In this document: positions 10,008 through 26,972 of the stretch, piece after piece | How positions within the stretch are numbered: position 1 is the stretch's first letter | Layout of the letters: each line of letters starts with the position of its first letter | Assembly (NCBI GenBank): GCA_964016885.1 | Contig: CAXHJY010000134.1 | Coordinates: forward strand, 1 to 64,000 | Direction of reading: 5' to 3' | Length of the DNA: 64,000 nucleotides | Source of the DNA: Eledone cirrhosa | Lineage: Eukaryota | Notes under the pieces: model-generated | The model's database searches: none | The model's input: only the letters and a program-made list of their open reading frames with translations | Told to the model about the DNA's origin: nothing | Program-made: the position numbers and the translations under genes

Positions 10008-10780
10008 ATGAATGACGTAAAATAAGAAAATTATAAAAATTAACTTACTTACTAAAATTTTACTCCAACTAATTAGTTTCTGAAACGGAATAAACATGGT
10101 TTCCAAATGGAAAGCATGGAGAAGCCGTTTCGTCATCAGGAAGTCTGTTCTCGGCTAAGATACCTGGCGATGCGTGGACTCAGGGAACTTATACAAAAAT
10201 AATTCAGTGGATGGAAAAAAGTAAGCGTGGACTAAATTCCAAGACATTGAAAAAATCACTGCCTACTTGGTCGGTGGCAAATTCAAAAGAATCAATCACG
10301 TGACATCGGGGTTAATCAGTGAGGAGTGGGGTGTTAAAAAGACAGTAGCCAAGCCATTACTATGAACAATAATAGCAGTTTTGGCAAATTTTTGCTCAAC
10401 AAAATAATTTGGAGATAATTATAAAGAATTAGTATATCTACCAACATATATATACAGATGCATACCTATGCTAGCAAATATATAGGTTTTGTCTTAGTAA
10501 CTTTGTGGTTCAATGCAAGAGGATGCAGAACAATTATATGAATGACGTAAAATAAGAAAATGATAAAAATTAACTTACTTACTCAAATTTCACTCCAACT
10601 AATTAGTTTCTGAAAGGGAATAAACATGGTTTCCAAATGGAAAGCATGGATAAGCCGTTTCGTCATCAGGAAGACTGTTCTCAGCTAAGATACCTGGCGA
10701 TGCGTGGACACAGGGAACTTATACAAAAATAATTCAGTGGATGGAAAAAAGCAAGCGTGGACTAAATTCCAAGACATTGA
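10008..10780 (-). mobile_element. HHR-containing non-coding tandem element (530-bp unit plus partial second unit) in (TA)n; retrozyme/Penelope-pLTR-like
   Basis: Direct repeat with period 530 (10010 vs 10540), flanked by (TA)n. HHR folds at 10062-10144 and 10592-10674. Homologous to 26151-26972. Confidence 0.75.
10062..10144 (-). ncRNA. Type I hammerhead ribozyme with long stem II (second copy 10592-10674)
   Basis: Minus strand: acttc-CTGATGA-c-gaaacgg..catg-c-tttcca-tt-tggaaa-c-catg..ccgtttc-a-GAAA-ctaattag-TT-ggagt. Palindromic stem III; GUU triplet. Confidence 0.75.
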
Positions 10781-11341
10781 ATATATATATATATATATCA
10801 AGGCAACTTGTTCTAGTAGCTTTAAACCTGACCAATGCAATTGAAGGTAAACTAAAATCGATCATACTATTAGCAATGAAATGTTCCAACCTTGTGCATG
10901 AAGACCAATATCAACAAATAGAGAATGGGGGGAATTGACTCCTCAAGATGCATCTCTTAATGCATAAAATGAGCCTGAGAAATACTGGTTTCTTGTTTCT
11001 CAAGAAAAATATGGTGACATATAAGGCTACCCATCTAAGTTCATGATGCAATTTCTTTCATTGCCACGTACTTCAACAGCTACAGACAGGGTTTTATCCC
11101 TTCTCAACAACATAAAAACAAAAAATCGCAATGCTTTAAAAATACCAATATTTAATGTCCTGCTTATATCAAAGTCTCTGTTGCTAAATGTTAGTGACAT
11201 CCGCAACAGCAAACTTGTCTCAAACTGCAAGAAACTGGTGCAGCACGAAAAGTGTGAAAGAAAACATTTCTTTATAATTAAAATAAATAAAGTAAAAAAG
11301 TAAATGTAAAACAGTCTCATTTTTTAACATTTGTGGGGTTT

Positions 11342-11700
11342 CATCATCATCATCATCATCATCATCATCATCATCATCATCATCATCATCATCACTGTTT
11401 AACGTCCATTTTCCTCGTTAGCATTGGTTAGACGAGTTGTCACATTGTGAGACAAGTCAGATCAGATGACCGTGCCTTGTTCATACAGAAATGTTTCTGG
11501 CTTGGGTTCTACAGCTGGATGTCCTTCCTAATGTCAACCACATTTACAGTGTGGACTAAGTACTTTTTATCGTGGCACCAAGACGATCACTTTACAGTGT
11601 GGACTGGGCCCTTTTTATCGTGGCTCCAACACCACTTTACAGTGTGGACTGGGCGCTTTTTGTCGTGGCACCAAAACGTTTACTTTACAGTGTTGACTGG
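11342..11700. mobile_element. SINE-like repeat with (CAT)n end and internal tandem subrepeats (actttacagtgtggactgg)
   Basis: (cat)n followed by gtttaacgtcc, an end motif that recurs at 24456 and 24722. Four ~48-bp subrepeats lie at 11543-11700. Confidence 0.55.
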
Positions 11701-12044
11701 AGGCTGGGATGGGGGTGTATGTCTGTAGGGTGGGGATTGAAGAGGTAGGTCTAAGTTGCGGCACTTAGCTAGTGAAGGGAGGAGTGTTATGACGTGGGCG
11801 AAGGGTGGTGTGTTATGACGTGGGGGAAGGTTTGTGTTTTATGGTGTGGGAGGTATATGGAAGGTTTTTTTGTATATGTTGGTGCTTTTAAAACAAAGTT
11901 TTGGTATTATTGAGAAAAGGGTTTCAGCAGCCCTGGTTGTGAACATATCACAGCTACTTCAGTAGCCGTGTGAGAAATTGAAACACTATCCTTCGAGATT
12001 TTTGTCGTCAGTAAAATCTATATAAACTCTTGCTTATTTTGTCC

Positions 12045-12445
12045 CATTACCGAATGAGCAAATGCCACTGAAGATGGATAAAAATCCTGAAACCTTAGTG
12101 ATAGGCGTTTTCACTCGGCTACATACCATAACAAGACTTATGTATGTTTATTGTACATACACACATATATGACTTCATATACACCTCTATATATTGAGCA
12201 TCTCCTTTCAATATTTCTTACGCAATAAAAGCATATAAGCTATGGCATATTCTGTTTCAGTACCGAGTGAGTAAATGTCACTGAAGACGAACACAAATCC
12301 TGAAACGCGTTTCTGTCATTCTCACGCAGTGACTGATAGATCTATGACATGACTACGGCTAAAATTTCCATAGCGAGACTCTTGTATGTTTATTATATGT
12401 AAACATATTGTATAAACCTTCATACAAACCTCTATTATAAACCAC
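12045..12445 (+). repeat. Diverged ~213-bp tandem dimer, each unit with an HHR-like core
   Basis: CTGAAGA-tggat/atcct-GAAA at 12068-12092 and CTGAAGA..GAAAcgcgttt at 12281-12312. The flanking sequences align between units. Confidence 0.55.
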
Positions 12446-24219: not shown

Positions 24220-24960
24220 TATGGCATACGTCAAGACGGGCGGTCTCAAAAGGGAATCTAATTTTACGATTGTGAATTTTTTTTTTTTTTTTACAACAGG
24301 TCACAATAGTGAAAGTATAATGCAGACACACGCAATTGTATGGCTTTCTTAATATATATATATATGTGTGGGTGTGTATATGTGTGTATATATATGTGTG
24401 TGTGTATGTATATATATATATATATGTGTGTTTGTATATATATATGTGTTTGTGTCATCATCATCGTTTAACGTCTATCTTCCACGCAAGCATGGGTTTA
24501 GACGTATATATATGTTTGTGTGTATATATGTGTTTGTGTGTATATATGTGTGTTTGTGTGTATATATATATGTGTCTGTATATATATATATGTGTATGTG
24601 GCCACATATATATACACACAAACACACATATATATACACACAAACACATATATACACACAAACATATATATACGTCTAAACCCATGCTTGCGTGGAAGAT
24701 AGATGTTAAACGATGATGATGATACAAACACATATATATATACAAACACACATATATATATATATATATATACATACACACACACATATATATACACACA
24801 TATACACACCCACACATATATATATATTAAGAAATCCATACAATTGCGTGTGTCTGCATTATACTTTCACTATTGTGACCTGTTGTAAAAAAACAAACAA
24901 ATTCACAATCGTAAAATTAGTTTCACTTTTGAGACCGCCCGTCTTGACGTATGCCATATA
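24220..24960. repeat. ~740-bp palindrome (inverted duplication) centred on gtggccac at 24598-24605
   Basis: Unique blocks (atggcatacgtcaagacgggcggtctc; gtttaacgtctatcttccacgcaagcatggg) and the microsatellites are mirrored on both sides. Confidence 0.85.
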
Positions 24961-24969
24961 TATATATAT

Positions 24970-25985
24970 ATCAAAATGAAAATCCGAAGGCAAGGTAAAA
25001 TTCCAATCATTTAATCACGACACATGTTTCAATAAGAGATAGATCGATTGTGAAGCCATGATCGATCATCACTGATCTCATCAGGTGAAAATGAATTGTC
25101 TTCAAATTCTTGATATGAGGGGGAAAAAATTTGCCGGCCCACATTGCAGTTGCTTGCACGCACGGATTTGGTGACACGGATTCTCAACGGGACAGCGGTA
25201 CACAAGGAGTTCAACATGAGCTGATTGCTTGGTCTTCACATGGATGGATGTGTATATACCATAACACACACTTGAAGATATGGATGTTACAATTCGATCT
25301 ATACACGTATAGCAGAACACTGAACTGAACTTATTTGCGCGCATGTGTGTGTGTGTATGTGTGTAGCGTTGGTTAACCCAATATTTCCAATTTACATCGT
25401 CAAATTGAGATTTGACCGACATAGCTTCTGTTGCTTTGTGAACTAACTTTCGGTGAGTGCTGTGTTGGTACATTCTTATATTTGTTTTTTCTCGGACATC
25501 GCTTCGGTGTGTGTGACAGTGTGTGTGTACCCACCCACGCTAATTCTACGGGTTTAATACTGTGTTGATGTGTGTATATATATGTATATATTTTTCTTTG
25601 ACCTCGAGCCGATGTATGCGGGTGTGGAGTGTGTGTGTATCCACTCACTTTTAACTGTGACTGACTGTATCCCTACAGATTTGATTGATGTCCAGCGTCT
25701 TTTGCAGCGATAGAAATCTGAAAAATGTTATGACCTTAACTAAAGCTAATAGCAGTGCCATGTCTCTGACTGACTGGTGTGTCTCCATATGAGGGAATGA
25801 ATTCTGTGAGAGAACATCGTTATTTTTTCTCCCTCATATCAAGAATTTGAAGACAATTCATTTTCACCTGATGAGTTCAGTGATGATCGATCATGGCTTC
25901 ACAATCGATCTATCTCTTATTGAAACATGTGTCGTGATTAAATGATTGGAATTTTACCTTGCCTTCGAATTTTCATTTTGATACT
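24970..25985. mobile_element. Penelope-like non-coding remnant with inverted ~160-bp terminal repeats carrying HHRs
   Basis: 24970-25130 is the reverse complement of 25821-25983, and the left end abuts (TA)n. Confidence 0.75.
25858..25944 (+). ncRNA. Type I hammerhead ribozyme (mirror copy 25015-25088, minus)
   Basis: tcac-CTGATGA(25868-25874)-..gatcgat..atcgatc..-GAAA(25922-25925)-catgt-GTC-gtga. Canonical GUC, with cleavage predicted after 25933. Confidence 0.75.
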
Positions 25986-26150
25986 TATACTCCGTTTTAC
26001 ATCATCTAGCTGTTCCCTCGAATGGAATTGGAGATATACAAAAGCGTGGAGAACTTAATATTGCTAACATTAAGTTATTGGACCATTTTACACAACCAAT
26101 AATGAACCTTACTATATAACAACTATATATATACATATATATATATATAT

Positions 26151-26972
26151 ATGAAAGACGTAAAATAAGAAAATTTTAAAAATTAAAAATTAACTTACTT
26201 ACTAAAATTTTCACTCCAACTAATTAGTTTCTGTAATGGGATAAAGATAGTTACGCAATGTAACTGTCGAGAATTCATTACGTCATCAGGGAGTCTATTC
26301 TCAGCTAAGTCTCCAGGCAATGCGCGGACACTAGGGACTCATATAAAAATAATAATAATTCGGTGGATGGAACAGCTAGCGGGGACTGAATTCCAAAGCA
26401 CTGAAAAAGTTCACTGTCTCTGGTCAAATGGTAGATTCTAAAGAATCAATCACGTGACACTAAGGCTAGTCGGAAGGAGTGGGGTGGTAAAATGACAAAA
26501 GCCTACTACCACTACAATAAGTTAGTAGTGGATTTGGCAGGTTTGCTCAACAAATAAATAATTTGGAGATAAATATAGAGAATTAGAATATTTACCGACA
26601 TATGCGTACAGATGTACACTAATGCTAGCAAATACATAAGTTATGTTATAGTACCTAGGTGGTTCAATGCAGGAAGATGCAGAACAATAATATGAAAGAC
26701 GTAAAATAAGAAAATTTTAAAAATTAAAAATTAACTTATTTACTAAAATTTTCACTCCAACTAATTAGTTTCTGTAATGGGATAAAGATAGTTGGAGTGA
26801 AAATTTTAGTAAATAAGTTAATTTTTAATTTTTAAAATTTTCTTATTTTACGTCTTTCATATTATTGTTCTGCATCCTCCTGCATTGAACCACCTAGGTA
26901 CTATGACATAACTTATGTATTTGCTAGCATTAGTGTACATCTGTACGCATATGTCGGTAAATATTCTAATTC
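26151..26972 (-). mobile_element. HHR-containing 541-bp unit plus partial repeat and inverted tail; relative of 10008-10780
   Basis: Period 541 (26151 vs 26692). An inversion from ~26788 mirrors 26580-26765. Flanked by (TA)n and (TC)n. Confidence 0.75.
26213..26294 (-). ncRNA. Type I hammerhead ribozyme with long stem II
   Basis: Minus strand: actcc-CTGATGA-c-gtaatg..gacagttac-attgc-gtaactatc..cattac-a-GAAA-ctaattag-TT-ggagt. Confidence 0.8.

Follow-up and report, generated by a model that had tools for sequence, protein, structure and literature searches.

A 64,000-bp stretch of the Eledone cirrhosa genome (GCA_964016885.1, contig CAXHJY010000134.1, positions 1–64,000; hereafter the window) holds two loci of a repeat family whose motifs lie on the minus strand. 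We regard it as probable that this family is a non-coding, tandemly arranged retrozyme without long terminal repeats (non-LTR retrozyme), carrying a predicted GUU-cutting type I hammerhead ribozyme whose stems I and II are clamped together by a docking helix. The helix would form between the strand preceding stem I and an internal loop in a long stem II, and the complementarity on which it rests recurs in three further families of the same genome.

The hammerhead and its repeat units

The minus-strand RNA is predicted to form a type I hammerhead, likely cutting after GUU, in which the core CUGANGA ... GAAA ... NUH sits at a three-way junction with an open stem I. All the parts named in a first-pass annotation of the window (CUGAUGA, GAAA, a palindromic stem III, the GUU triplet and the stems) were found on that strand. 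At the base of stem II, 295 of 302 copies have C·A, so that the paired 10.1–11.1 position, usually G-C, is lacking, and both partners were changed in only three copies genome-wide. The predicted fold of the circular monomer is stable (z = -5.1 against 40 shuffles). Rfam hammerhead models gave no match at E ≤ 1 in the window and none at gathering score in five loci, returning only microsatellite look-alikes.

Locus A (10008–10781) comprises 1.46 units with two ribozymes and is flanked by (TA)n runs, and locus B consists of one complete ribozyme, a partial unit and an inverted arm, terminating in (TC)n(TA)n (Table 1). The earlier description of both as tandem units without open reading frames (ORFs), inserted in (TA)n, thus stands as to the units of 530 and 541 bp and their lack of ORFs, and is amended as to the architecture of the loci. 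The two units are 82% identical over aligned bases, with GC contents of 0.345 (A) and 0.353 (B). Across the family we obtained 78 distinct site-to-site monomers of 507–571 nucleotides (nt), arranged in tandem and each with a type I hammerhead, and the longest ORF starting with ATG among family dimers measured 103 amino acids (aa). A pattern combining the palindrome and the core had 8,986 exact matches in the 3.0-Gb genome, as against 0 for the reversed-pattern control, which excludes chance. Tandem units each bearing a type I hammerhead, absence of coding capacity and a GC content under 45–50% are among the features by which a non-LTR retrozyme is recognised, and all three were present.

Compensatory change in stem II

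Enough flanking sequence was available for 315 copies, and the 175 of them that had at least 250 nt of unit sequence upstream were clustered on sequence outside the ribozyme; copies were sampled non-randomly (best BLAST hits, first-listed matches and targeted patterns). Subfamilies defined in this way each have their own stem II, and all 28 clusters of at least two copies follow one plan, in which a stem IIa of about 6 bp is followed by a pyrimidine-rich internal loop of 6–7 by 6–7 nt and by stem IIb. In 29 hand-picked representatives 94.9% of the cells were paired and nine pairs had changed on both sides. Stem IIa was 98.9% paired with three doubly changed pairs; stems I and III were 98% paired without double changes, and distal stem I (Ib) was not supported (88% paired, no double change).

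Because the shuffle statistic applied to the 29 representatives ignores relatedness, a tree was built from the unit body of 26 of them, the other three having no body sequence. Six double substitutions in stem IIa were placed on this tree, each on one branch, with 5', 3' and pair steps equal per position, and the change from G-C to U-A at stem IIa pair 5 arose twice (convergently). An independent-sites null on the same tree gave a mean of 0.16 such substitutions and a maximum of 3 in 3,000 runs. The proposal of the first-pass annotation that the RNA fold was under selection during the family's spread is backed by six independent events, far beyond the two-copy comparison from which it came. 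A genome-wide pattern for copies with both partners of pair 4 changed retrieved 31 copies, 30 of them U-A; these belong to one lineage and represent one event.

In the 19 clusters of at least three copies, every majority pair was paired (114/114 in stem IIa and 76/76 in stem I), and the wobbles among these pairs, read on the minus strand, were 10 G·U and 0 A·C. By contrast, 16 of 19 private departures in stem IIa break the pair. Paired majorities, wobbles of the G·U kind only and pair-breaking private changes together fit selection on minus-strand source RNAs followed by neutral decay. The second ribozyme of locus A (core at 10669) carries private changes that break one docking pair and one stem I pair, and for this reason the covariation is taken to reflect the source RNAs and not the window copies. 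The inference from covariation to functional ribozymes accordingly holds for selection on the source RNAs; it says nothing of activity in these genomic copies and is no proof of cleavage, since a Penelope hammerhead was dispensable for insertion in vitro (PMC11167929). The covariation claim is correct but ordinary, as such changes are already published for Penelope and retrozyme hammerheads (for Penelope, PMC4209133).

Some helices of the two window copies needed redrawing. The outer helix at 10062, given as gaaacgg/ccgtttc, does pair as proposed, but its 7-bp form depends on a private change at 10086 that occurs in 1 of 43 A-type copies; 37 of the 43 have CCCUUUC there, which yields 4 bp and 2 bp separated by a bulged C. 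The inner helix at 26213 (gacagttac/gtaactatc) is present, with a C·A mismatch on the RNA strand that is found in 26 of 43 B-type copies, and the A inner helix consists of 4 bp, C·C and 5 bp. Stem I, described as shared, is not identical (ACUUC versus ACUCC, with U·G for C-G). The real differences between the A and B outer helices are two double substitutions, at pairs 2 and 5.

A likely docking helix between stems I and II

The first-pass description of the fold does not contain the docking helix. The sequence GAGAA, 5' of stem I at -9 to -13 from the core, complements a UUCUC that lies in the internal loop of stem II at about +9 to +13, and the two offsets are mirror images. Both motifs are nearly invariant, and the flanking helices change around them. 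The docking helix was paired in 97% of cells; a G-C to A-U replacement occurred in 5 of 29 rows, as one event. One clade shows the succession GAGAA/UUCUC, GAAAA/UUUUC and then GGAAA/UUUUC, with the 3' strand of stem I unchanged at the first step. We also considered GAGA as an extension of stem I, pairing with the stem I 3' strand (UUUU), and rejected it, as there was no double change in that register.

In active hammerheads, stems I and II lie side by side. The mirror-image offsets match this geometry, and the helix is for that reason read as activating: stems I and II are likely clamped by 5–6 Watson-Crick base pairs between the pre-stem-I strand and the stem II internal loop. The stem I/stem II tertiary contact expected of a hammerhead would then be present as a Watson-Crick docking helix and not as the usual loop motif, with covariation as its evidence. 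On the sequences compared, compensatory change is shown to have maintained the docking complementarity as well as the fold, which consists of stem I, a stem IIa of 6 bp, the internal loop and stem IIb.

The same plan in three further families

Scanning 1.3 Mb of fetched flanks for hammerheads with a long stem II brought up three other families. Family 2 has tandem units of 457–468 nt and 728 matches; its UGGAAA/UUUCCA is kept while the neighbours change, and the docking pairing persists although its stem III is an imperfect palindrome. Family 3 (units of 482–487 nt, 2,203 matches) uses GAAAAG/CUUUUC and GAGAAG/CUUCUC (loci L354-L383, L414-L426), and its tree contains two compensatory docking events. 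The loop CUUCUC was accompanied by the upstream strand GAGAAG in 4 of 4 loci, three of which had been fetched for the loop before the upstream strand was known. Family 4 (units of 645–683 nt, 1,903 matches) uses GAGC/GCUC and GAGU/ACUC (loci L384-L413, L427-L433); in the 37 copies parsed out of 43, its variable pair was C-G in 17, U-A in 17, U·G in 2 and mismatched in 1, which amounts to one event.

At least four independent compensatory changes thus maintain docking across the families. Cognate runs of at least four Watson-Crick pairs were found in 81–96% of copies, compared with 14–64% after shuffling of the upstream strand, and outside the ribozyme the four families share only short similarities. 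With confidence little better than even, we lean towards an undescribed animal type I architecture in which a pre-stem-I strand would dock by 4–8 Watson-Crick pairs into a 50-nt stem II at its internal loop, and might form a triple helix in cases where the two loop strands are rich in U. At least four retrozyme families, accounting for some 13,800 exact motif matches in this genome, would share it; it would be invisible to Rfam and would allow fast cutting of the monomer despite the mismatched stem II base. By eye, a triple helix is plausible for families 2 and 3, and not for the window family or Family 4. A literature search turned up no description of docking of this kind in animal type I hammerheads, with the limit that figures and several supplements may show similar folds.

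Other details were noted in these families. Family 2 has U·U at the stem II base and both its loop strands are U/C-rich (loci L196:7700 and 8159 (+); L274-L303); one of its arrays, on C1 near 156.43 Mb, is two-armed and has about 29 listed units. A divergent group of Family 4 (L412, L428) has up to nine complementary bases. Locus L099:937 (+), seen as a single copy, is a further hammerhead whose long stem II has an internal loop, and it shows a UGAG/CUCG complement of 4 bp.

Insertion structure and mobilisation

The arms of the 60 loci viewed stop at about +59 or +177 relative to the cut site; two arms are often joined head to head, and the arms lie nearly always in (TA)n or (TC)n. Two fixed 3' ends with a like 12-nt motif between them were found in all four families, and we propose this motif as a candidate recognition site for the mobilising enzyme. 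Two internal start sites with a tail are a Penelope signature (PMC11167929; Craig et al. 2021), and Hydra-clade elements all insert in (TA)n and have hammerheads that often combine a stem II base mismatch with a 3–4-bp stem III (PMC8557442). The family has the tail, the inverted 5'-truncated arm and the microsatellite target that mark a non-autonomous Penelope-like derivative. Its pair of fixed 3' ends, together with the inverted arms and the insertion into (TA)n, points to Penelope-like enzymes, probably of the Hydra clade.

With respect to 5' ends, 54 fell in the 30 nt after GUU and 47 in the 70 nt before it, a 2.7-fold rise (p = 7.5e-7) that is compatible with cleaved RNA as the template as well as with stalling at stem I. 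Arms often pass through the cut site and some exceed one unit, indicating that the templates were uncut multimers or circles. None of the sequence runs that hold the family is listed as RNA; two runs of unspecified kind have contigs with the family and with head-to-tail joints, which are uninformative on RNA.

Taken together, these features suggest a cycle in which tandem transcripts would be cut into monomers of 507–571 nt and possibly circularised. The docking helix would stand in for the usual non-canonical loop 1/loop 2 contact and may compensate for two weak points, the C·A base of stem II and stem III. A Penelope-like protein with reverse transcriptase (RT) and GIY-YIG domains, probably of the Hydra clade, would copy the RNAs from two internal start points into (TA)n; selection would act on the succession of source RNAs, and most genomic copies would then decay neutrally.

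Units lying near GIY-YIG or Hydra-like ORFs were considered as belonging to an autonomous partner and proved to be separate insertions, the sampled ORF-bearing elements having other hammerheads. Penelope elements with long RT/GIY-YIG ORFs and a hammerhead with a U3-A8 core variant occur at loci L195, L196, L204, L206 and L207. Within the window, positions 28059–30510 hold a two-armed Penelope-like insertion in (TA)n with a Hydra-like 430-aa ORF remnant (CxCX5C linker, no Pfam match), a decayed hammerhead near 30360–30470 whose stem II is about 80 nt long, and 3' ends at +58 and +229. An inverted Penelope-like element at 60188–63038 likewise has a Hydra-like ORF remnant (61463–61981) with a CxCX5C linker, together with a hammerhead-like motif whose stem II is about 90 nt long (cores 62876 + and 60350 -).

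Weighing of the evidence and alternative explanations

Several observations weigh against our interpretation. Docking in the window family comes down to one compensatory event, and a single event alone occurred in 368 of 3,000 null runs; one event combined with low breakage occurred in 3 of 3,000. In Family 3 an A·G mismatch is fixed within the helix of the most abundant subfamily (27 of 47 copies), and the purine-rich and pyrimidine-rich strands of different families partly cross-pair, the Family 3 strand scoring 5.04 with the Family 2 loop as against 5.18 for the cognate pairing. In a nearest-neighbour model that works without pseudoknots, the active monomer lies 2.5 kcal/mol above a rod-like fold that pairs the stem III palindrome with the core; the active fold could be favoured after all by docking, by dimerisation or by the two together. 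Conservation of the core is partly built into the search patterns. The 5' ends show no spike exactly at the cut site (2 of 339 at position 0), and no autonomous element with the unit was found in 30 + 20 GIY-YIG loci sampled from 10,597 candidates, nor beside Hydra-like ORF matches.

An unlikely alternative, though the most probable of those considered, is that the hammerhead cuts but that GAGAA/UUCUC serves to switch it off, or belongs to a fold of the RNA after cleavage or circularisation, and that activity comes from dimers formed through the 12-nt palindrome. The palindrome duplex is indeed far more stable than the monomeric stem III hairpin (-10.8 versus +1.5 kcal/mol), metazoan type I hammerheads often need dimers (PMC4209133; PMC7229834), and in nested folds stem I may instead be lengthened by pairing of GAGA with UUUU. 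That register lacks any double change, however, and the mirror-image offsets in four families are what side-by-side stems I and II would lead one to expect. Furthermore, Family 2 keeps the docking pairing with its imperfect palindrome, and a 5-bp helix closing a 25-nt loop would be too weak without preformed stems.

Less likely still is that the structure is kept for recognition by a Penelope protein or by host factors (packaging, template choice or stability), cleavage being weak or irrelevant. Hammerhead mutants left in vitro insertion by a Poseidon protein unaffected (PMC11167929), 8 of 9 Xenopus retrozyme dimers did not cleave (bioRxiv 10.64898/2026.07.22.740005), and the frequent running of arms past the cut site implies uncut multimers or circles as templates. 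On the other hand, subfamily-majority cores vary only at the free position 7, two 2-copy clusters excepted (conservation of a kind that the search patterns favour), and the rise of 5' ends comes just after the cut site. That the paired changes are a DNA-level by-product of template switching within inverted repeats is highly improbable: the genome is full of inverted duplications, also around both loci, but the changes affect single pairs on separate branches, the wobbles are G·U on one strand only, the pattern of majority, wobble and private changes argues against DNA-level repair of inverted repeats, the internal loop remains open, and the docking pairs form no hairpin.

Relation to known ribozymes and elements

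The window family has a real, selected hammerhead fold and falls within a known element class; the proposed docking helix is a structural variant that we did not find described. Like animal non-LTR retrozymes (PMC7229834; bioRxiv 10.64898/2026.07.22.740005), the window family consists of AT-rich non-coding tandem units with one type I hammerhead each, in thousands of copies alongside Penelope-like elements. Its units of 507–571 nt are longer than the 170–400 nt in PMC7229834 and fall inside the range of 51–972 in the bioRxiv study. Unlike those retrozymes, it has a stem II that spans some 50 nt and contains an internal loop, putative Watson-Crick docking, two fixed 3' ends and inverted arms. 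Mussel retrozyme ribozymes lack most of the usual tertiary nucleotides (PMC7229834).

In Penelope hammerheads helix II is long and helix I short, loop 1 is poorly defined, A9 is followed by an extra base and loop 3 is palindromic, and the families are rich in compensatory changes (PMC4209133). With the hammerheads of Penelope elements, those of the Hydra clade in particular, the window family has in common the short stem I, a C after A9 followed by G...C, the palindromic stem III, covarying families, (TA)n targets, the tail and the inverted arm (PMC4209133; Craig et al. 2021). Mismatches at the stem II base also have precedents there, U·U being common in Hydra elements and PLE-X1_cBra having the same C·A (PMC8557442 supplement). 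In contrast, the published Penelope stems II are about 3–9 bp long, mostly with a short terminal loop, whereas that of the window family is long and looped; and unlike Penelope elements the window family has no ORF, an autonomous carrier of the unit being absent among the sampled loci.

Many hammerheads of bacteria and some of animals are activated by Watson-Crick pseudoknots (PMC3088659), and disrupt/restore mutants have shown the pseudoknot to be needed for speed (PMC3088659; PMC7936874). In these hammerheads, including the toad and termite type III ribozymes resembling hepatitis delta virus (HDV-like, PMC7936874), base pairs replace the non-canonical loop 1/loop 2 contact, as is proposed here. 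They differ in pairing a terminal loop with the tail or with a stem I internal loop, whereas the window family would pair its pre-stem-I strand with a stem II internal loop; its type I docking would be the mirror image of the HDV-like type III case, in which the stem I internal loop meets loop II (PMC7936874). The CChMVd (chrysanthemum chlorotic mottle viroid) minus-strand hammerhead also uses a stem II internal loop as docking site, but it is of type III, docks terminal loop 1 and does so by non-Watson-Crick contacts (PMC2632901).

The known loop 1/loop 2 nucleotides are missing from many hammerheads of animal retrozymes and Penelope elements. The window family offers a specific candidate for a tertiary contact by which a useful speed could be reached, and its natural compensatory variants can be used directly as disrupt/restore constructs. 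The docking plan could also serve as a search descriptor for a large class of hammerheads that Rfam misses.

Features of the window

Table 1. Positions of the retrozyme units and hammerhead parts in the window
Feature	Position	Strand	Remarks
Full 530-bp retrozyme unit, subfamily A	10008..10537	-	3' end adjoins (TA)n, 59 nt past the cut site
Second, upstream unit of locus A, 5'-truncated, 244 bp, with second, partly decayed ribozyme	10538..10781	-	9 differences relative to copy 1
Type I hammerhead A1, including docking strand	10062..10152	-	Core 10139-10133; predicted cut 10067/10066
Putative docking strand GAGAA of A1, 5' of stem I	10148..10152	-	
UUCUC, 5' strand of stem II internal loop in A1, putative docking partner	10119..10123	-
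Long stem II of A1 (IIa, pyrimidine-rich internal loop, IIb)	10082..10131	-
12-nt palindrome of A1: stem III (monomer, 3 bp + 4-nt loop; dimer, 12-bp duplex) and GUU triplet	10067..10078
Hammerhead A2	10592..10682	-	Core 10669-10663; loop UUAUC (docking pair broken, 10651); outer stem I pair broken (10674)
12-nt tail motif, between two fixed 3' ends	10504..10515	-	Similar motif at the same place in all four families
Full 541-bp retrozyme unit, subfamily B	26150..26690	-
Type I hammerhead B	26213..26302	-	Core 26289-26283; predicted cut 26218/26217
Putative docking pair of hammerhead B	26302-26297 and 26274-26269	-	GAGAAU (26302-26297) complements AUUCUC (26274-26269)
12-nt palindrome of hammerhead B	26218-26229
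Partial upstream unit of locus B, 5'-truncated within stem II	26691..26793	-
Inverted arm of locus B	26789..26973	+	Begins ≤5 nt (microhomology) from the cut site; passes the normal 3' end into a 118-125-nt tail

The window contains further repeats. A 310-bp tandem array at 18618–21744 (8.6 copies, 99% identical) with an inverted arm is a very young insertion and has a short hammerhead in each unit, with U·U at the stem II base. An inverted pair at 25084 (-) and 25868 (+) belongs to another hammerhead family (about 1,200 candidates); the stem II of that family is long and irregular, and neither an open internal loop nor a clear docking pairing was found in it. Hammerhead-like motifs of other families were picked up by a simple descriptor at 9409 (+), 23484 (+), 56066 (+) and 35567 (-). 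Two LINE-like (long interspersed nuclear element) RT ORFs, each about 1,000 aa long, and remnants of LTR-retrotransposon integrases lie at 42966–46010 (+), 56533–59595 (-) and 13793–15223 (-).

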